Under the pieces are notes generated by a model that saw only the letters and a list, made by a program, of their open reading frames with translations, searched no databases and was not told where the DNA came from. Shown here one piece after another: positions 18,545 to 57,251 of a stretch of DNA of 64,000 bases. Made by a program: the position numbers and the translations under genes. This DNA comes from Mobula hypostoma. Lineage: Eukaryota. The stretch covers positions 164,860,001 to 164,924,000 of the forward strand of contig NC_086097.1 of the NCBI RefSeq assembly GCF_963921235.1, read 5' to 3'. Numbering within the stretch: the first letter of the stretch is position 1; each line of letters begins with the position of its first letter.

Positions 18545-18554
18545 TATAATGCTA

Positions 18555-20849
18555 GCAACACACATCAAAGTTGCTGGTGAACGCAGCAGGCCAGGCAGCA
18601 TCTGTAGGAAGAGGTGCAGTCAACGTTTCAGGCCGAGACCCTTCGTCAGGACTAACTGAAGGAAGAGTGAGTAAGGGATTTGAAAGTTGGAGGGGGAGGG
18701 GGAGATCCAAAATGATAGGAGAAGACAGGAGGGGGAGGAATAGAGCCAAGAGCTGGACAGGTGATAGGCAAAAGGGGATACGAGAGCATCATGGGACAGG
18801 AGGTCCGGGAAGAAAGACAAGGGTGGGAGACCCAGAGGATGGGCAAGAGGTATATTCAGAGGGACAGAGGGAGAAAAAGGAGAGTGAGAGAAAGAATGTG
18901 TGCATAAAAATAAGTAACAGATGGGGTACGAGGGGGAGGTGGGGCCAAGCGGAAGTTAGAGAAGTCAATGTTCATGCCATCAGGTTGGAGGCTACCCAGA
19001 CGGAATATAAGGTGTTGTTCCTCCAGCCTGAGTGTGGCTTCATCTTTACAGTAGAGGAGGCCGTGGATAGACATGTCAGAATGGGAATGGGATGTGGAAT
19101 TAAAATGTGTGGCCACTGGGAGATCCTGCTTTCTCTGGCGGACAGAGCGTAGATGTTCAGCAAAGCGGTCTCTCAGTCTGCGTCGGGTCTCGCCAATATA
19201 TAAAAGGCCACATCGGGAGCACCGGACGCAGTATGTCACTCCAGTTGACTCACAGGTGAAGTGTTGCCTCACCCGGAAGGACTGTTTGGGGCCCTGAATG
19301 GTGGTAAGGGAGGAAGTGTAAGGGCATGTGTAGCACTTGTTCCGCTTACACGGATAAGTGCCAGGAGGGAGATCAGTGGGGAGGGATGGGAGGGACAAAT
19401 GGACAAGGGAGTTGTGTAGGGAGCGATCCCTGCGGAATGCAGAGAGAGGGGGGGAAGGAAAGATGTGCTTAGTGGTGGGATCCTGTTGGAGGTGGCGGAA
19501 GTTACGGAGAATAATATGTTGGACCCGGAGGCTGGTGGGGTGGTAGGTGAGGACCAGGGGAACCCTATTCCTAGTGGGGTGGCGGGAGGATGGAGTGAGA
19601 GCAGCTGTACGTGAAATGGGGGAGATGCATTTAAGAGCAGAGTTGATAGTGGAGGAAGGGAAGCCCCTTTCTTTAAAAAAGGAAGACATCTCCCTCGTCC
19701 TAGAATGAAAAGCCTCATCCTGAGAGCAGATGCGGCGGAGACGGAGGAATTGCGAGAAGGGGATGGCGTTTTTGCAAGAGACAGGGTGAGAAGAGGAATA
19801 GTCCAGATAGCTGTGAGAGTCAGTAGGCTTATAGTAGACATCAGTGGATAAGCTGTCTCCAGAGACAGAGACAGAAAGATCTAGAAAGGGGAGGGAGGTG
19901 TCGGAAATGGACCAGGTAAACTTGAGGGCAGGGTGAAAGTTGGAGGCAAAGTTAATAAAGTCAACGAGTTCTGCATGCGTGCAGGAAGCAGCGCCAATGC
20001 AGTTGTCGATGTAGCGAAGGAAAAGTGGGGGACAGATACCAGAATAGGCACGGAACCAGATTGTTCCACAAACCCAACAAAAAGGCAGGCATAGCTAGGA
20101 CCCATATGGGTGCCCATAGCTACACCTTTAGTTTGGAGGAAATGGGAGGAGCCAAAGGAGAAATTATTAAGAGTAAGGACTAATTCCGCTAGACGGAGCA
20201 GAGTGGTGGTAGAGGGGAACTGATTAGGTCTGGAATCCAAAAAGAAGCGTAGAGCTTTGAGACCTTCCTGATGGGGGATGGAAGTATATAAGGACTGGAC
20301 ATCCATGGTGAAAATAAAGCGGTGTGGGCCAGGGAACTTAAAATCATCAAAAAGTTTAAGAGCGTGAGAAGTGTCACGAACATAGGTCGGAAGGGATTGA
20401 ACAAGGGGTGATAAAACAGTGTCGAGGTATGCAGAAATGAGTTCGGTGGGGCAGGAGCAAGCTGAGACAATAGGTCGGCCAGGACAGGCAGGTTTGTGGA
20501 TCTTGAGTAGGAGGTAGAAACGGGAAGTGCGAGGTGTGGGAACTATAAAGTTGGTAGCAGTGGATGGGAGATCCCCTGAGCGGATAAAGTCGGTGATGGT
20601 GTGGGAGACAATGGCCTGGTGCTCCTTAGTGGGGTCACAACCGAGGGGTAAATAAGAGGAGGTATCCGCGAGTTGTCACTGTGCCTTGGCAAGGTAGAGG
20701 TCAGTACGCCAGACTACAACAGCACCCCCCTTATCGGCGGGTTTAATAATAAGATTAGGATTAGTGCGGAGGGAGTGGAGAGCAGAGCGTTCCGAAGGAG
20801 TGAGGTTGGAATGGGGACAAGGTGCCGTAAAGTCGAGACGGTTGATGTA
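18555..20849 (-). mobile_element. Penelope-like element (RT + GIY-YIG endonuclease), 5'-truncated, probably inactive
   Basis: MDVQSLYTSIPH, GVAMGTHMGPSYACLF, YIDN in place of YIDD (20002-20013), VYYKPTDSHSYL; GIY-YIG GVTYCVRCSRCGLLYIGETRRRLRDRFAEH; frameshift near 20058; 11-bp TSD ATATAATGCTA at 18544-18554 and 20850-20860. Confidence 0.93.
18617..18654 (-). ncRNA. Minimal type I hammerhead ribozyme motif in the Penelope 3' pLTR
   Basis: Reverse complement TAGTC-CTGACGA-AGGGTCTCGGCCT-GAAA-CG-TT-GACTG: intact CUGANGA and GAAA core, stem I AGUC/GACU, GUU triplet, palindromic ACGU stem III. Confidence 0.7.
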
Positions 20850-37555: not shown

Positions 37556-39790
37556 AGAAACATAGAAACATAGAAAATAGGTGCAGGAGTAGGCCATTCG
37601 GCCCTTCGAGCCTGCACCGCCATTTATTATGATCATGGCTGATCATCCAACTCAGAACCCAGCCTTCCCTCCATACCCCCTGACCCCTGTAGCCACAAGG
37701 GCCATATCTAACTTCCTTTTAAACATAGCTAATGAACTGGCCTCAACAGTTTGCTGTGGCAGAGAATTCCACAGATTCACCACTCTCTGTGTGAAGAAGT
37801 TTTTCCTAACCTCGGTCCTAAAAGGCTTCCCCTCTATCCTCAAACTGTGACCCCTCGTTCTAGACCTCCCCAACATCGGGAACAATCTTCCTGCATCTAG
37901 CCTGTCCAATCCCTTTAGGATCTTATACGTTTCAATCAGATCCCCCCTCAATCTTCTAAATTCCAACGAGTACAAGCCCAGTTCATCCAGTCTTTCTTCA
38001 TATGAAAGACCTGCCATCCCAGGAATCAATCTGGTGAACCTTCTTTGTACTCCCTCTATGGCAAAGATGTCTTTCCTCAGATTAGGGGACCAAAACTGCA
38101 CACAATACTCCAGGTGTGGTCTCACCAAGGCCTTGTACAACTGCAGTAGTACCTCCCTGCTCCTGTACTCGAATCCTCTCGCTATAAATGCCAGCATACC
38201 GTTCGCCTTTTTCACCGCCTGCTGTACCTGCATGCCCACTTTCAATGACTGGTGTATAATGACACCCAGGTCTCGTTGCACCTCCCCTTTTCCTAATCGG
38301 CCACCATTCAGATAATAATCTGTTTTCCTATTTTTGCCACCAAAGTGGATAACTTCACATTTATCCACATTAAATTGCATCTGCCATGAGTTTGCCCACT
38401 CACCCAACCTATCCAAGTCACCCTGCATCCTCTTAGCATCCTCCTCACTGCTAACACTGCCACCCAGCTTCGTGTCATCCGCAAACTTGGAGATGCTGCA
38501 TTTAATTCCCTCATCCAAGTCATTAATATATATTGTAAACAACTGGGGTCCTAGCACTGAGCCTTGCGGTACCCCACTAGTCACCGCCTGCCATTCTGAA
38601 AAGGTCCCGTTTATTCCCACTCTTTGCTTCCTGTCTGCTAACCAATTCTCCACCCACACCAATACCTTACCCCCAATACCGTGTGCTTTAAGTTTGCACA
38701 CTAATCTCCTATGTGGGACCTTGTCAAAAGCCTTTTGAAAATCCAAATATACCACATCCACTGGTTCTCCCCTATCCACTCTACTAGTTACATCCTCAAA
38801 AAATTCTATGAGATTCGTCAGACATGATTTTCCTTTCACAAATCCATGCTGACTTTGTCCGATCATTTCACCGCTTTCCAAATGTGCTGTTATCACATCC
38901 TTGATAACTGACTCCAGCAGTTTCCCCACCACCGACGTTAGGCTAACCGGCCTATAATTCCCCGGTTTCTCTCTCCCTCCTTTTTTAAAAAGTGGGGTTA
39001 CATTAGCCACCCTCCAATCCTCAGGAACTAGTCCAGAATCTAACGAGTTTTGAAAAATTATCACTAATGCATCCACTATTTCTTGGGCCACTTCCTTAAG
39101 CACTCTGGGATGCAGACCATCTGGCCCTGGGGATTTATCTGCCTTCAATCCCTTCAATTTACCTAACACCACTTCCCTACTAACATGTATTTCGCTCAGT
39201 TCCTCCATCTCACTGGACCCTCTGTCCCTTACTATTTCTGGAAGATTATTTATGTCCTCCTTAGTGAAGACAGAACCAAAGTAATTATTCAATTGGTCTG
39301 CCATGTCCTTGCTCCCCATAATCAATTCACCTGTTTCTGTTTGCAGGGGACCTACATTTGTCTTTATCAGTCTTTTCCTTTTTACATATCTATAAAAGCT
39401 TTTACAGTCCGTTTTTATGTTCTCTGCCAGTTTTCTCTCATAATCTTTTTTCCCCTTCCTAATTAAGCCCTTTGTCCTCCTCTGCTGAACTCTGAATTTC
39501 TCCCAGTCCTCAGGTGAGCCACTTTCTCTGGCTAATTTGTATGCTACTTCTTTGGAATTGATACTATCCCTAATTTCTCTTGTCAGCCACGGGTGCACTA
39601 CCTTCCTTGATTTATTATTTTGCCAAACTGGGATGAACAATTGTTGTAGTTCATCCATGCAACCTTTAAATGCCTGCCATTGCATATCCACCGTCAATCC
39701 TTGAAGTGTCATTTGCCAGTCTATCTTAGTTAATTCATGTCTCATACCTTCAAAGTTACCCCTCTTTAAGTTCAGAACCTTTGTTTCTGA
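37556..39790 (-). mobile_element. Very young 5'-truncated CR1 LINE
   Basis: Uninterrupted ORF2 from the truncation point to the stop; (TTCTATGT)n-type tail; 5-bp TSD ATGTT at 37551-37555 and 39791-39795. Confidence 0.96.
37652..39745 (-). CDS. CR1 ORF2 reverse transcriptase (697 aa, endonuclease domain absent)
   Basis: KSPGPDGLHP, NYRPVSLTS, YLDFQKAFDKVPH, GVPQGSVLGP, KFADDTK all intact; frame stays open upstream to 39790 (SETKVLNLKRGNFEG). Confidence 0.9.
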   Translation of the reverse strand: MRHELTKIDWQMTLQGLTVDMQWQAFKGCMDELQQLFIPVWQNNKSRKVVHPWLTREIRDSINSKEVAYKLARESGSPEDWEKFRVQQRRTKGLIRKGKKDYERKLAENIKTDCKSFYRYVKRKRLIKTNVGPLQTETGELIMGSKDMADQLNNYFGSVFTKEDINNLPEIVRDRGSSEMEELSEIHVSREVVLGKLKGLKADKSPGPDGLHPRVLKEVAQEIVDALVIIFQNSLDSGLVPEDWRVANVTPLFKKGGREKPGNYRPVSLTSVVGKLLESVIKDVITAHLESGEMIGQSQHGFVKGKSCLTNLIEFFEDVTSRVDRGEPVDVVYLDFQKAFDKVPHRRLVCKLKAHGIGGKVLVWVENWLADRKQRVGINGTFSEWQAVTSGVPQGSVLGPQLFTIYINDLDEGIKCSISKFADDTKLGGSVSSEEDAKRMQGDLDRLGEWANSWQMQFNVDKCEVIHFGGKNRKTDYYLNGGRLGKGEVQRDLGVIIHQSLKVGMQVQQAVKKANGMLAFIARGFEYRSREVLLQLYKALVRPHLEYCVQFWSPNLRKDIFAIEGVQRRFTRLIPGMAGLSYEERLDELGLYSLEFRRLRGDLIETYKILKGLDRLDAGRLFPMLGRSRTRGHSLRIEGKPFRTEVRKNFFTQRVVNLWNSLPQQTVEASSLAMFKRKLDMALVATGVRGYGGKAGF

Positions 39791-40112
39791 ATGTTCTTCA
39801 TAGGTACCTGTATAATTGAAGCCTAGTTGAAGCAGAAGGGCACCTCAGATGGCCAAAGCAAGAGATTAAAGATATCGGTGAACACTCCAACCAGTTGATC
39901 AGCACAGGTCTTTAACACTCGGCCAGGTACTCAGTCTTTTCAGTGACTTCCCATCTTTGTGGTACAAGGGTCTTGGTGGTTTCTATCAGCATTGCCCTCT
40001 AAGATACAGGATTTAAGCCAGTAAGTTAAGAGAACAAAGTGTTTTATACATAAAGGAATTACAAATAAAGAACATTGCTTCACATTAAAATTAGATAGGT
40101 TAAAATATAAAT

Positions 40113-44545: not shown

Positions 44546-44636
44546 TATCAGGGCAACTGGAATCCATCAATGCTGCAATACACATCAAAGTTACTGGTGA
44601 ACGCAGCAGGCCAGGCAGCATCTCTAGGAAGAGGTA

Positions 44637-44674
44637 CAGTCGACGTTTCGGGCCAAGACCCTTTGTCAGGACTA
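44637..44674 (-). ncRNA. Hammerhead motif, G8-to-A core mutation (predicted inactive)
   Basis: Reverse complement TAGTC-CTGACAA-AGGGTCTTGGCCC-GAAACGTC-GACTG. Confidence 0.6.
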
Positions 44675-44982
44675 ACTGAAAGAAGAGCTAGTAAGAGATT
44701 TGAAACTGGGAGGGGGAGGGGGAGATCCGGAATGACAGGAGAACATGTTCCACGAAAGGATATATGGCTGTGATAGCGAGTCTAAGTCAAAATGTGGTCG
44801 AAAAGTTGAAGAGCCGAAGAAATTACAGATGGGGAGCAGTGAGAGATGGTTTCACTGAACTCCCGTCGAAGAGAAGATTTAAACTTCTTCAGTGTAGGCA
44901 TCACCAGAAGAGGCTTCGTAGTAGTGAATTTAAAAACATAAACACGAGGAAATCTGCAGATGCTGGAATTTCAAGCCGCAGT

Positions 44983-45020
44983 TAGTTCTGACGAAGGGTC
45001 TCAGCCCGAAACGTCAACTG
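44983..45020 (+). ncRNA. Minimal type I hammerhead ribozyme motif, intact core
   Basis: TAGTT-CTGACGA-AGGGTCTCAGCCC-GAAACGTC-AACTG; predicted cleavage after C45015. Confidence 0.75.
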
Positions 45021-45382
45021 TACCTCTTCCTAGAGATGCTGCCTGGCCTGCTGCATTCACCAGCAACTTTCATGTGTGTTGTTTGAAATTCCAGCATCTG
45101 TAGATTTCCTCGTGTTTATATTTTTAAATTCACTACTGCGAAGCCTCTTCCGGTAATGCCTACACTGAAGAAGTTTAAACCTTCTCTTTGATGCGAGTTC
45201 AGTGAAACCATCTCTCACTGCTCCCCATCTGTAATTTCTTCGGCTCTTCAACTTTTCGACCACATTTTGACACAGACTCACTATCACAGCCATATATCCT
45301 TTCGTGGAACGTGTTCTCCTATCATTTTGGATCTCCCCCTCCCCCTCCCAGTTTCAAATCTCTTACTAGCACTTCTTTCAAT

Positions 45383-45420
45383 TAGTCCTGACGAAGGGTC
45401 TCGGCCCGAAACGTCGACTG
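45383..45420 (+). ncRNA. Minimal type I hammerhead ribozyme motif, intact core
   Basis: TAGTC-CTGACGA-AGGGTCTCGGCCC-GAAACGTC-GACTG; stem I AGUC/GACU, stem II GGGU/GCCC with CUCG loop, GUC triplet; predicted cleavage after C45415. Confidence 0.8.
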
Positions 45421-47954
45421 TACCTCTTCCTAGAGATGCTGCCTGGCCTGCTGCGTTCACCAGCAACTTTTATGCGTGTTGCTTGAAATTCCAGCATCTG
45501 CAGATTTCCTCGTGTTTCCATCAATGCTGGCCGATTATGGATGGACACTTAAAGGAAACCTCAGATGCTGAGTACAAATGAAAATCATCAACAAAATATT
45601 TTTAGCTTAGTTGAACTATTGCAAGGGATCAGCACCGTTATGCAATTAAATGCACTATATTCAATAAAAGTAATTTCTTATTTCTCCAAATTCCTATGTG
45701 ATACAAATAGTCTGAAATTATATTTGTGTTCAGCTTCAGACAGTCTATCATAAATAAAGAAATAATTTTGAGGAAGCAACACTTGGAAAAAAATTGTCCT
45801 CCAGAGTAATCAGATCCTGTTCCCAGTGAACCGCTAAGGTTCCAATTCTCAGCTTAATGTCAGCCAACACCATTTCTCTTTGCATCTATACCATGTTTTA
45901 ATTTAAAGTTCCTCCCATGAGACTTACGCCCACAACACTATTAACGTGCAATTTTAATTCTGTTTGCTTTCCATCTGTGTACATTTGCAACTGTCTCTCT
46001 TTCCCCCCATGTCCATTCATAAAGGCTGACAATTTCTGTTGCAGAACCATTTTGTAGTGAAGTCACTTCAGTGCCACTGAACAGAGGGTCAAGTTCTTAA
46101 AGGAGCAAATGAAAGAATCTATTCCCTGCTGAGAGTAAATATTTGCTCCCACAAAGTGCAAATTTGTTCACTGCTTTAAAATTAAAAACAGATGGATCTA
46201 AATCATGTTTGTAGGGCAGAAAGAGCACTCTGGAACAAGGTTCAAAATGTCAAGTCCCAGAAGGGTTTGTTCCTATCAATCACTACTTCATTTAAAAATG
46301 GAGCAAATGAAGAAAATAAAGAGTTACAAACTGGTTAGGAAAAGGTTGGCGTCTGCAGAAATTTTAATTTGTTGGGTTTTGCAGAGGCATGTTAAACATG
46401 TGCACATGTGCCATAAGACAACTTTGTACAGAATTTTGGCTGACTGGGTGGGACAATTAGGTGGGATAATCCTTTTATAACACCCCTTTCTTCATACTCT
46501 TGGGGGTATCCCAAGTATTCCATTGTATACATTTCCTGTGCCCCAGTCACTGAGAATAAAGTTTCTTGGAACATGTTACATATGATTGATCAGTGGGCAC
46601 ACAAGCTTAAATTTTCTTTGGACTCAGCAAATTTCATAGGAAGAATAGCCTTGTTATTTTTTTAAACAAATCTTGCAGCAGTGTAAGCTAATGTGGAATA
46701 TAACCATGACATCTTATAAATTTCAGTAAATCAGCTTTGCCTGAAGTGGGTCTCAGATGACCCTCTGCAGAGTCAGTGTAAAGTGGGGAGCTTACATTCC
46801 AGCTTACAGTAAAAACAATAAAAGTGCACAAATTGTCTTCAGAACAGAAGCAAGCTGTACATTCATTTACCATTTGGAGAGATTTGAGTTGAATCATTCC
46901 ATTTTCTGATAGATCAAGCTTACTCTACCTGGTTAACCCACACATACAAATCAGGTGTGGTACTAAATTTGCACTGCTTTCTGCTCACTATGCACCATGC
47001 ATGGTCAGAGTAGGAACACACAAGCACACAAAGGCAATCTATACCTTTACAAGGAGGTTGGCATTGTGTCCACAATAGGTGTGAATATTTTCTCTAGAAT
47101 TCAGTATGTAATACGGCACCAATCTGATAAAGACTTTGCATAGAATTTTGCAATCCTTTCACTCCAACATGGGACAGTCACTTCGAGCAGTGACACAAAT
47201 AAATTGCAGCATGCGATAACCAATGATTCAGCTTCCAATTCCATGTGGACAGCTTCCACCAACAGGCTGAGTACTGAGGTCAAACTCCAGACTTCTGATA
47301 CACTGCTGTCATCATGGATGCTCGTCATTGAAAGAGTTCCCAGGACATTACATCTTTCCAGCAGTCTCTTCTCTGACAGATTGTTAGGGTTACTGTGTGA
47401 TACCATGTCTGGAGTACAGCCATTGCTCTGCAAAGAACAATGCACTAAAGTAGATACAGTATGTTGAATACTACCAGGTTACTATTGCCCATATTGTCAG
47501 TCCTCCAGTCCAAACCATGACCATTCTCTCAGAAAAATACAGTCAGATGTGGTCTCCAGTCAAGGGACACACAAGACTACACTTCCTACAGTACTTGTAA
47601 ATTGAATTTAGTAGCTTTAGTCCAGCTGCAATTTCATAATCGTTCTTCCTGCTTGTATCTAACAAAAGAAAATGCCTGATCCTTCACTGTACTAAGCTCT
47701 ATGCCCCATGCATTAATGTACAGAGACACAATCACTTTCACAGTCCTTGCCATGTCTTTCTAACTTTGCCTTATGTTGGAGTTGGCACATTTTGCTCACA
47801 ATTTCACGAGCAAAGCACAAGGCTCATGTTGAATTTCAGGAAGGAACGTAACCGAAAATATCAATATGGCCCCCTTTTCACTTTAAATGCACAATCATGT
47901 TCAATTGCACGGGGACATTTGATAGGTCATGTAGGAGGTACAAGAGAGGGCAGA

Positions 47955-50038: not shown

Positions 50039-51073
50039 AGCAAAACACACAAAAGGACTCTTGATGAAGGGTCTCGGCCCGAAACATCGACTGTGCTCCT
50101 TCCTATAGATGCTGTCTGGCCTGCTGCATTCCACCAGCATATTGTGTATGTTGCTTGTGTAACCGGGTGACCATCGGATCTTATTCAGTATCGTTAAAAG
50201 TGTACTTAGGCATCCATCCGGGTAATGCTAGAATAGTTGTCTGTGCCTTAAGGGAGACAGTGATGTCATTACGCACACGCGGGATATCAGGGAGACCATT
50301 TCGCTTTCTGCTGAAGACGAGGTAAGGTGTTGGAATCTGGTCTCTCCGAGGGTGTGCTGGGCATGGTGAGGAAAGGTGAGCATTAATTGACGATATCCAT
50401 GTGAATTAATTTATTCTTGCTGGCGAATTGAGAATATCGGTAGTTTGACATGTTTTACATGTGGATGCTTTAGATTTTCTCGAGTGAATGACTCAACGCT
50501 GGATTGCATGGCTTGGGCAAAGTTCCTCACCATCCAAGTAGGTCAGGCTTCCTGTAATTTAACTACCAGGCAATATCTTGTAAAATTTGTGCCAAGGAGT
50601 ACCTTTTGTCTAACTTTATTGTATCAGGACTGATTGTGCATGTAACCGCGTAGCGTGAATGTTTATCTCTGTTCGGAAGTTCAGCTGTATGTATGTCTTA
50701 GATGAGATGTATTCGCTTACATTTTTCACTGTTATGTATAAGATACAGGGTGGGTGGAATTCTAATATTGTTTGTATTGTGTTCCTTCAGGATTGCCGCT
50801 ATCATATTTGTACCGTATTAATTCTGGTATTTTTATACTGCACACGCAATTCTGTCCATACACAAGGGTGTGAATCGGAAGTTAAACTGAAATTGTAGCG
50901 GCAAGAACTGGTTGTAAATTTCTTCGTTTTGTTTCACGACCCTCCTCTGGCACTTAAACATCGAAAACCGATAAAGAAATTAAAACCCGAAAGTCTTTGT
51001 TGTCCTGAGCGTGTACTTTTTCCCAGGCTACAAAACTTGAATTTCCAGCATCTGCAGATTTCCTTATGTTTGC
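50039..51073 (+). mobile_element. Short Penelope pLTR insertion (mutated hammerhead at about 50058-50093), split by a solo LTR
   Basis: 11-bp TSD ACTCAGAATCA at 50028-50038 and 51074-51084; TTGATGAAGGGTCTCGGCCCGAAACATCGACTG; sequence resumes CTTGAATTTCCAGCATCTGCAG after 51035. Confidence 0.8.
50158..51032. mobile_element. Solo LTR (875 bp)
   Basis: TGTAACC...GGCTACA termini; CTTG on both sides (right copy offset by AAA); interrupts an otherwise continuous pLTR. Confidence 0.7.
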
Positions 51074-54729: not shown

Positions 54730-57251
54730 TGTAGGGTAACATATTGGTGGAAATGTACATAATTCGCAACCACCAACATTGACACAAGGAATTCTGCAGA
54801 TGCTGGAAATTCAAGCAACACACATCAAAGTTGCTGGTGAACGCAGCAGGCCAGGCAGCATCTCTAGGAAGAGGTACAGTTGACGTTTCGGGCCGAGACC
54901 CTTCGTCAGGACACATTGGTGGCCCAAATACTCTAGGATGATCCCAGAGTTATTAAATCTGTCAGCCAATGCAGTCACTTCGAAACTGCCAGAGTTTGGG
55001 GAGCAAAATGCCCTTGTTTGATTTGTACAAGCCAAGGCCCAATCTCCGTCAACAACATCAAATATTTCTAGGTAGCAACAACACTCAGTAACTCCATGGC
55101 TGCGAGAGTGGTGAGTCTACTTGAACACCTGCCTGAACACAATAAATACCGATTGCTGAGAACTCATCTTTTACAGACCGTTGCACTACCGGAGTCTGAG
55201 CTCACCGAACACTTACTCTCCTTGCCTGGCCTTGGCAATGCTACACCGTCAGAGCTAATGGACCACATGCTGTCTCTCCTGGAAAATCACCATCTTTGTT
55301 TTACTTTTCAAGAATTCTTCAGTGAGAGTAAGAGTTTGGCACGGACTAGAGGGGCTGAGATGGCCTGTTTCTGTGCTGTAATTGTTATATGGTTATATGA
55401 TTCATGCAGTGAATGCTTAATCAAGTTGCATAGCTCTTGCTACTGCACCCGTGAAGAACTATAGGGAGTTTGCTAAAATGGCCAATAGTCTACACTCAGG
55501 TAGGTACCTCCTCCTTTCTCTACCTCAATAAGCCCCCAATATAAGGACGCCAGCAGCTGCAGAAGAGGCCTGTGATTTTACCACGTTCGCTTTGGTACAA
55601 ATGTCAGGAAGTACAAACCACCTTGCAGCTTCGACAGTACCAGGGCATCGGGACATCAGAGATCCATGAACACCATAGGTTCCAGCCATCAGGGCTGTCT
55701 ACTGTTCATTGCGGACGCCCTTTCAGGGTGACGCGTCCTGTGTGACATGGGTGCTCAAGTGACTGTCCTGCCAGCATTGTCTATTGATGAGAAAGCAAAG
55801 AGCAATGAAACCTGCCAACAGCCGAGGATCCAGACTTACGGACACGACGGGTGATGCTCTGCCCCAGTGGCAACATTACACATGGCAGTTTGTCCTGGCT
55901 AAAGTGGCTAGACCTCTGCTCGGTGCAGATTTCCTGTGTGCCCAAGAACTATTGGTCAGTCTTAAGAACTGCTGGCTTGCGGATGTCAAGAATTTTGGGT
56001 CGTTCGCCTGCTCCCCGAGTAAGTTCCCCACAACGACTCTGCACCACCGCATGTGAGTTTACTCGACTGCTGGTCGGATTAGCCCCTGGGCCTTGCCTCT
56101 CCATATGATCCCTAGGTCTGATGGTGGTTGCTGCCCATGTGACAATTATCGATGCCTTAACAAGGCCACCACCCCTGATCATTACCAGTCCCACGCATCC
56201 AGAACTTTTGGTATGTTTAACTAGAAAGTTAATTTTTTCCGAAGTCTATCTAGTTACGGGCTACCATCAGGTGCCTGTGTGCTCGAAAGACATTCCCTAA
56301 ACAGCTGTAATAACCCCGTTTGGCCTCTTTGAGTTTCTGCACATGCTGTTTGGGCTGAAAAATGCAGCCGAGACTTTACAATGGCTGATGGATTCTGTAT
56401 TGAAGACGGATTTTCTCTTTGTTTACCTGGATGACATACTTGTTGCCAGTGCATCCAAATCCAAACACAGATCTCACCTCCGCACACTTTGAGTGCTTAA
56501 ACCAACACTGGTTGATTATTGACCCTGATAAATGCCAGTTTAGGTTGTCAACCATTGACCTCCTCAGCCATCACATCTCTGCAGAAGGTAGAAACCCCCC
56601 CCCATCAAAAGTAGCTGCTATGATAGATTTCCCACCACCCCGCTCAACTAAAAAACTACTAGAGTTTTCAGACATGGTTAATTTCTGTCACCACTTCATT
56701 CCACAAGCTGCTGAACTTATGTTCCCTGTTCCATGTTTTGGAATGGGGAGAAAAGACCTCTATCATAGATAAGAGGGGTAAACCAGAACGTATTTTGGTA
56801 GTTCGCCTTAAACAGGCCCACCAAGATTTGGAGGACTCCGCTGCCATGCTCCTAGTGTCACAACTTGGCCATGAACGTTTCAACACACCTTTGGACGAGC
56901 CAGAGGCGCCTGCTGTTACTCCGTCTGTGGAACATAGGACACAAGCTGGACGGCTCGTCTGAGCTCTGACAGGCTCACAATGCCGGTTTTGACGTATTCC
57001 AGGGGGGTGGGGGGGGAGGAGTGCCGGGTGTAGGGTAACGTAATTGATGGAAACGTACATAATTCACAACCACTGACATTGAGTTGCCATTTCACTTTAA
57101 GAGGCTGAACTGAAATGATGATGTCATTACGTAAAGTACTTCTACCACACTTTGCCTTCAGTGTTTGGAGTATAATAAATGAATTGCTATAGTTTTTCTT
57201 AAACATAAAACACCTCCGCCATTTTTATTTGCAAAAACCTACTTGATAACA
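54730..57251 (+). mobile_element. Decayed, internally deleted Ty3/Gypsy LTR retrotransposon
   Basis: 5' LTR stub 54730-54781 matches the start of the 3' LTR 57029-57251 (TG..CA); PBS-like TTGGTGGCCC; gag KLPEF..WFVQAKAQ; protease LCDMGAQV; RT GYHQVPV, TPFGLFEF, VYLDDIL; G-rich PPT at 57001-57021. Confidence 0.88.
54782..54912 (-). mobile_element. Penelope pLTR fragment with intact hammerhead core (54877-54912)
   Basis: Reverse complement GTC-CTGACGA-AGGGTCTCGGCCC-GAAACGTC-AACTG..; nearly identical to 45385-45516. Confidence 0.85.

Follow-up and report, generated by a model that had tools for sequence, protein, structure and literature searches.

Insertions of endonuclease-containing (EN+) Penelope-like elements consist of partial tandems with an inverted, 5′-truncated partner, a tail of 30–40 bp and a target-site duplication (TSD) (PMC8557442, PMC3846280, PMC11167929). 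How these elements build their tandem and inverted ends has been stated to be unresolved (PMC8557442, PMC11167929). Penelope reverse transcriptases (RTs) form the sister group of telomerase (PMC8557442), and the RT of the anole element uses two adjacent internal start sites in vitro, nicks and extends both strands, requires the first 172 nt of the open reading frame (ORF) and can dispense with hammerhead cleavage (PMC11167929). Fish Penelope elements carry minimal hammerheads of low activity, and circular templates have been proposed (PMC4209133). Metazoan retrozymes are expressed, self-paired circles for which Penelope elements were named as likely mobilisers (PMC7229834). Their origin from Penelope elements, proposed there, has already been published: Li, Clavereau and Pollet (2026) describe animal retrozymes as non-autonomous Penelope derivatives, report retrozyme repeats with a mean of 363 bp in one cartilaginous fish, propose local DNA tandem amplification after insertion and observed cleavage in one out of nine dimers, while the way in which retrozyme units first arise from Penelope elements is left open (10.64898/2026.07.22.740005). 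Here we analyse a Penelope-derived fold-back of 940 bases, located in a window of 64,000 nt of the Mobula hypostoma genome (contig NC_086097.1, positions 164,860,001–164,924,000, forward strand).

The fold-back is a single old Penelope-type insertion without nearly all of the coding part. It shares with EN+ Penelope insertions of the Neptune/Nematis linker type the head-to-head arms, the tail on one arm, the TSD and the minimal hammerhead in the terminal repeat (PMC8557442, PMC3846280, PMC11167929). Internal deletion derivatives are likewise found among known Penelope-like elements, including one microhomology-mediated case (PMC3846280). In contrast to known Penelope insertions, the deletion joint occurs here twice within one insertion and nowhere else, which points to repeated copying of one template. 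Locus-private joints repeated within Penelope insertions were not found described in the literature searched, subscription journals and Repbase lying outside its scope. In the following, plain positions refer to the window, whereas "q" denotes the numbering on a full-length parent copy (L044, period 3513 nt), with q1 being the base that matches window position 44979. On this scale the hammerhead cut falls after q37 and the ORF begins at about q178.

The fold-back insertion and its repeated joint

The insertion lies within a 13-bp TSD (TCCATCAATGCTG, plus strand, 44563–44575 and 45517–45529), as stated in a preliminary description of this DNA, and is composed of two inverted arms that are arranged head-to-head and 94% identical over 400 nt. 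The left arm (44575–44976, minus strand) represents one circularly permuted 400-nt unit plus a 2-nt GC overlap, again in agreement with that description, and reads q103–335, joint, about q3450–3513 and q1–104 with respect to the parent. The right arm (44979–45516, plus strand) comprises 1.35 units and reads q1–335, joint, about q3450–3513 and q1–138. Both are separated at the inversion point by two bases that match neither arm (44977–44978). The outer (3′) end of the left arm coincides with RT start site 1 and that of the right arm with RT start site 2, which corresponds to site 1 plus the 35-nt tail. This optional Penelope tail between both start sites is recognised by its sequence at 45483–45516 (plus strand; PMC11167929).

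A direct repeat of 139 nt has a spacing of exactly 400, and two minimal type-I hammerhead motifs are present on the plus strand (44983–45020 and 45383–45420). Their GUC triplets end at 45015 and 45415, after which cleavage is predicted, so that the reported 400-nt distance between two same-strand cores holds. As to the tandem copies noted earlier, the right arm extends over 1.35 units, and no array is called by Tandem Repeats Finder (TRF). At 44664, within the CUGANGA core, the hammerhead motif of the left arm (44637–44674, minus strand) has a G-to-A change by which it is predicted to be dead; all three hammerheads were assigned by motif and by the description of minimal hammerheads in PMC4209133. 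In the first copy (44983–45020), paired changes in stem I convert C-G to U-A and keep the stem; one of them falls at a CpG, and chance is a plausible cause.

Both arms contain the same deletion joint (44742–44745 on the minus strand and 45313–45315 on the plus strand), as had been claimed. Here the ORF start is fused to the 3′ untranslated region (UTR) with a loss of about 3.1 kb of the element, a microhomology of 1 nt and, in the right-arm copy, a G just before the joint. The stretch upstream of it (45156–45314, plus strand), previously described as 53 codons beginning with ATG, indeed corresponds to the first 53 codons of the parent ORF but is not open, the right arm having a stop at codon 12 and the left arm one at codon 40.

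The arms differ at 25 of 402 sites, and 21 of the differences are transitions, 10 of them at CpG. Such differences are the result of independent decay since insertion and are unlike those of an assembly chimera. At the same time, one variant is private to the two arms (2 of the 170 family pieces that cover the site) and a second one is common to both and carried by three out of 44 pieces. Arm differences in combination with a shared private variant indicate one old insertion derived from one template, not an assembly artefact. Across the family, a rare variant is shared by 11 of 103 piece pairs within a locus, compared with 693 of 34705 pairs between loci. That the fold-back arose during assembly is hardly credible also for other reasons: besides the 25 differences, the permuted ends and the 13-bp duplication argue against it, as do the 11 head-to-head pairs counted in an unselected sample of 1.064 Mb and a contig of run X1 that runs through the left-arm joint, covering 42 letters on one side and 60 on the other with five differences. 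Although no public contig spanned the insert or bridged the inversion point, these are short-read contigs, possibly of other species, and hence uninformative.

In 3.48 Gb, a pattern spanning the joint had no match other than the two arms, whether one or two mismatches were allowed. In this form, the genome-wide junction search that had been suggested for finding other tandem or permuted copies returned none, and confinement of the joint to this locus means that there is no retrozyme family.

Joints across the genome and the copying of one template

A search with the DNA of the unit, in which 40 of 5837 candidates were scored, retrieved 30 loci. Two correspond to the locus studied, seven continue into the ORF, and 21 are other hammerhead-to-hammerhead deletions with nearly all different joints. 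Three gapped patterns gave 27, 24 and two matches, amounting to 47 independent loci after removal of duplicates. Altogether a joint was called at 65 or more loci, with repeat retrievals and two further copies of L145 and L151 (taken as segmental duplicates by eye) left out of the counts; one of the 65 calls was omitted as it fell below the quality cut, and the remaining 64 represent 52 automatic types, or somewhat fewer by eye (about 50). Judging from the match counts, the total of such loci may be on the order of 100–200, about one thousandth of the family.

Twelve of the 65 loci carry their own joint twice. In six the copies stand in tandem (L002, L010, L017, L019, L054, L055), and in the other six they occupy both inverted arms (the locus studied, L015, L128, L130, L141, L173). 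Among the 47 loci found by patterns, which were not chosen for repeats, eight show a repeated joint. Repeated joints at 12 loci indicate that the template was traversed more than once, and the preliminary proposal to this effect is borne out by the private variant in both arms together with the same pattern at 11 other loci. The joint of L015 is also private to its locus. However, since the joint of L054 recurs at two other loci with one mismatch, not every joint passed more than once is private.

Five of the six tandem loci start downstream of their end point within the unit and therefore hold sequence that a one-unit precursor would lack, which means that later unequal crossing-over cannot produce them. 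Moreover, L002 adjoins its TSD directly. These positions suggest that the repeats were written during reverse transcription, in contrast to the local DNA amplification proposed by Li et al. (10.64898/2026.07.22.740005). A young case is L017 (L017:1140-2010, G000:C22), with 2.1 copies of a 407-bp hammerhead unit, a TRF array and a 13-bp TSD; it is 99% identical to the active subfamily, its tail end of 18 bp is duplicated, and of all loci in this genome it is the most promising one for testing cleavage and RNA. Conversion readily affects palindromes, and the second joint might in principle have been copied at the DNA level after a single jump or deletion, either by second-strand fold-back at integration or by later gene conversion between the inverted arms. 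For inverted Penelope copies self-priming has indeed been proposed (PMC3846280). We regard this origin as very improbable, since the outer end of the left arm is RT start site 1 and adjoins the target duplication, the arms are mutually permuted, and the tandem loci cannot arise in this manner from a one-unit precursor.

The joints are present on old, intermediate and young subfamily backgrounds, and a few types recur. Non-CpG difference amounts to 5.3% between same-joint loci and 5.4% between any pair, whereby unit length served to define the same-joint loci, so that some of their pairs are accidental; an excess of shared rare variants among same-joint loci was not detected. L014 and L017 have one joint but belong to different subfamilies. 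In L130 (1300-2057), which carries the commonest joint (303/3416) in both arms, three subfamily-type sites distinguish the arms, which suggests that two templates shared this joint. A G is found just upstream of the joint at 28 of 64 loci (p ~8e-7) and in 20 of 52 types (p ~3e-4), compared with 17% expected, and this excess is spread across several different G positions. Microhomology at the joints is 1–3 nt long; of the 52 types, 45 show 1 nt or more, against 50% under the null, a count that is inflated by the use of three references. The left-side ends are discrete (303, 307, 312, 321–329 and 335), and the landing sites, q277–340, all belong to the initial 170 nt of the ORF. Among the matches to the patterns, spacers of every length in the searched range occur, which speaks against selection for a unit of 400 nt. 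That the deletions stem from splicing is rejected, since the joints are heterogeneous and GT-AG ends are lacking, and an origin of the G excess from a cap is unsupported at 16 plain 5′ ends.

The template may have been a closed circle or a linear RNA. In the first case, an earlier deleted copy with two hammerheads would have been transcribed and cut twice, and the resulting 400-nt circle or multimer copied by the Penelope RT in rolling-circle mode, its source being lost or situated on an unassembled haplotype. Such a circle would account for joints that are base-identical in each pass and for a left arm of exactly one unit; single-joint copies with two hammerheads, as possible sources, are common among the loci retrieved, recurrent joint types are found at seven out of 12 multi-pass loci, and circular templates have been proposed (PMC4209133, PMC7229834). 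However, genome-wide joint patterns revealed no source copy for the locus studied or L015, nor was one found for the young L017 among the young-subfamily matches, and same-joint loci show no kinship. In L149 (1236-2905), one arm contains two different joints, from about q2666 to 307 and then from q3390 to 306, with the inverted arm ending near q3396 and the insertion lying within a 13-bp TSD. In L052, one pass shows a joint with 12 unmatched bases, while the following pass lacks a joint. The joint is thus changed or dropped between passes at these loci. In addition, minimal Penelope hammerheads cut poorly in vitro (PMC4209133), only one of nine Xenopus dimers was cut (10.64898/2026.07.22.740005), and the unit is unstructured. 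We consider a ribozyme-made circle or multimer a serious but less probable alternative.

A second kind of circle, less probable still, would have been closed by ligation: a protein-protected RNA fragment spanning the terminal repeat, with its 5′ end in the 3′ UTR and its 3′ end in the ORF start, would be joined into a private circle and circled by the RT, the joint being the closing point. This would explain at one stroke the private joints, the base-identical repeats, the discrete left-side ends and the arm of exactly one unit. Ligation, however, leaves both the microhomology of 45 among the 52 types and the excess of G unaccounted for, and the two joints of L149 require two events.

Our preferred explanation, to which we give an even chance, is that the joint was made during reverse transcription, the RT running off the 5′ end of the RNA and being re-primed in the ORF start of the same RNA. 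Its starting points are observed: the target is duplicated by 13 bp, both of its ends are joined to element 3′ ends (one at site 1, the other at site 2), and one template served both arms. Each nicked strand would engage an RT molecule of its own, and both molecules would begin at the upstream start sites of a single RNA with its 5′ end in the 3′-UTR part of the terminal repeat (parent position about 3450). Each would reach this end and jump to position 335, pairing 1 nt and probably an added C with a G, in a region that the protein is expected to hold. An identical RNA end in combination with an identical cDNA end would yield an identical joint each time. The left cDNA would stop on meeting its own start, giving one unit, and the right cDNA would continue to the outer hammerhead edge, a common stop. 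The hammerhead would merely be carried along, its cutting not being required, and the product would be a dead-end, retrozyme-shaped by-product. The G excess and the microhomology fit a cDNA end, perhaps with an added C, that re-pairs in the ORF start, and the landing sites match the stretch needed by the anole protein (PMC11167929). At eight loci (L004, L005, L009, L010, L012, L052, L054, L126) the partner arm passes the joint position without a deletion and belongs to the same subfamily haplotype.

Several observations weigh against run-off and re-priming. The repeated joints are base-identical at the 12 loci, apart from a displaced run of T in L055; for this, a covalently closed template is a simpler explanation than a series of jumps. 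No private variant links a deleted arm to its undeleted partner, so that two RNAs per insertion are possible; a variant thought to join the deleted and undeleted arms of L054 was withdrawn because 38 of 85 pieces carry it in a wider background. An extra G is not evident at the 16 plain 5′ ends, so that the added-C step is not backed independently. A jump one generation earlier, in a source copy since lost, would likewise have passed on the G and microhomology signals. Furthermore, three of 81 pieces at deleted loci start at q36–38, at or beside the cut (one of them in a 4-nt overlap with the inverted partner), and the pattern searches were limited to joints in a narrow window and to little-mutated copies. 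The one-unit length does not separate the models, because a stop at this point is expected of any RT that comes round to where it began on one RNA; only two of the 81 leader-bearing pieces at deleted loci start at RT site 1. As proof of a circle, the "one exact circle" of the preliminary description is weak, as site 1 is also a stop in ordinary copies (two of 59 pieces begin there).

The parent family and further copies

By its sequence, the parent is a Neptune-type Penelope element of about 3.5 kb, and full-length copies with a period of about 3.5 kb were found. A separate copy in the window (18554–20848, minus strand) contains the RT, a CX4CX2C linker, the GIY-YIG domain and the terminal repeat. 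RVT_1 (E 3e-4) and GIY-YIG (E 1.6e-4) both score just under the Pfam cut-offs, and the CX4CX2C motif lies upstream of the GIY-YIG match in the translation of 18856–20094. A CX2-5CxxC motif between RT and endonuclease distinguishes Neptune/Nematis from the Penelope/Poseidon clade (PMC8557442), and the predicted linker of the parent is of the Neptune/Nematis type. The unit of the fold-back matches 18554–18726 at 90–91%, confirming that it contains a Penelope terminal region. The copy at 18554–20848 had been taken as a member of the likely parent family; it does belong to the family but is 5′-truncated and, since leader and ORF start are missing, is not the direct source. The family displays the features of EN+ Penelope-like elements, namely an RT followed by a C-terminal GIY-YIG endonuclease, a pseudo-LTR (long terminal repeat) with a minimal type-I hammerhead, inverted 5′-truncated partners, a tail of 30–40 bp at one end and a TSD.

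In the 1.064 Mb of unselected sequence, 59 terminal-repeat pieces were identified at ≥84% identity. Their 3′ ends are bimodal, 28 lying around q103 and 31 around q139. Of the 11 head-to-head pairs, judged by eye, 10 have one arm ending at each 3′ site. Their 5′ ends include eight at q5–8 and two at q105, and none at q35–41, where the hammerhead cut is located. As the two-site 3′ ends are the known tail signature and a two-site start has been published, fold-back, tail and TSD are ordinary for this class.

A young subfamily comprises at least 24 copies that are 98–99% identical over 410 nt and was recently active; the 14 of its copies that were examined continue 1.8 kb into the ORF. Larger internal deletions, or fusions of a 5′ part with the terminal repeat, are present at L045, L046, L047, L048, L039, L040 and L038, with left ends at q375–1806, and in several of these the downstream piece restarts at q6, the outer hammerhead edge. 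L150 and L151, as well as L145, L146 and L147, are near-identical insertion structures at separate places and probably represent segmental duplications.

The hammerhead is preceded by a pyrimidine tract and a tandem AG (CAG, TAG), a splice-acceptor-like stretch found at 44979–44985 and 45379–45385, which is a place where many short copies start. In the Penelope element of Drosophila virilis an intron ends at the equivalent place (PMC4209133). The window further contains a tail-only insertion at 51037–51073, extending from RT site 2 back to site 1 (q105–141), a second example of which occurs in the unselected sample, and a short copy, q7–137, at 54782–54912 (minus strand), which begins at the outer hammerhead edge and apparently has a short target duplication. 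An open stretch of 730 codons at 37652–39844 (minus strand) resembles the RT of a CR1-type LINE, which it may encode.

Relation to retrozymes and implications

Metazoan non-LTR retrozymes have units of 150–450 bp with a GC content below 50%, a type-I hammerhead per unit, a long TSD and kinship with Penelope terminal repeats (PMC7229834, 10.64898/2026.07.22.740005), all of which they share with the locus described here, whose unit measures 400 bp with a GC content of 0.445 and whose TSD is 13 bp long. A retrozyme would have at least two units in tandem, each with a complete hammerhead; the locus has two same-strand hammerhead motifs 400 nt apart, but over 1.35 units and without a TRF call. The sister locus L017, which does give a TRF array, has the form counted by the pipeline of Li et al. 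(10.64898/2026.07.22.740005). In contrast to retrozymes, the locus is not part of a family, comprises 1.35 units, bears a minimal instead of a canonical hammerhead, has no self-paired fold and is known from DNA alone. A multi-copy family spread as a unit was not found, the joint being present in the two arms only and same-joint loci elsewhere lacking kinship. Folding of the unit was no better than that of shuffled sequences (z −0.23 linear, −0.26 circular), so that the monomer is not highly self-paired, although a fold may have suffered from the decay of each arm by about 3%. A co-fold of both hammerhead stretches gave no clean dimeric ribozyme, and an Rfam scan of the 64-kb window returned no match at gathering thresholds.

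Of the earlier interpretation, an internal-deletion derivative of Penelope made by the Penelope RT is retained. Its second part, a retrozyme as a propagating unit, is not, given that the joint occurs only here, the unit is not self-paired and same-joint loci are no closer than any two copies. A template delimited by double hammerhead cleavage is no more than a possibility. As far as its sequence goes, the locus is a Penelope deletion derivative that appears to behave as a nascent retrozyme unit, yet in family and in structure it falls short of a retrozyme. It is a dead relic, and nothing suggests that it has a function.

Its value lies in the private joints, which serve as molecular tags: a tag that appears twice, and in one insertion only, shows that a single template served both primed strands and was read more than one time. 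These tags render the question of circle or jump directly testable in the existing in vitro Penelope system. It is likely that the element's enzyme can copy one short stretch of RNA repeatedly. A comparable activity is known from the DRT2 reverse transcriptase and telomerase, which produce tandem cDNA from a linear RNA template (PMC12039810). If run-off and re-priming holds, the likeness would extend to tandem cDNA being made from one linear RNA by a jump back over short pairing. The parallel is no more than an analogy, as DRT2 and telomerase have a fixed template and a function, whereas the joints described here change from one event to another and the products resemble accidents.

In its widest form our proposal, which we advance tentatively and with less confidence than the origin of the individual joint, is that in vivo the Penelope RT adds repeats reiteratively, with its own RNA as the template. 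Having copied the terminal repeat to the 5′ end, it would jump back into the ORF start and begin again, thereby writing head-to-tail hammerhead units of 380–430 bp with event-unique joints, neither a prior genomic deletion nor a ribozyme-made circle being needed. The roughly one hundred footprints in the genome would then be the raw material of animal retrozymes. What the locus presents is thus not an established retrozyme but, in repeated copying, a possible route by which ribozyme-bearing repeats are born.

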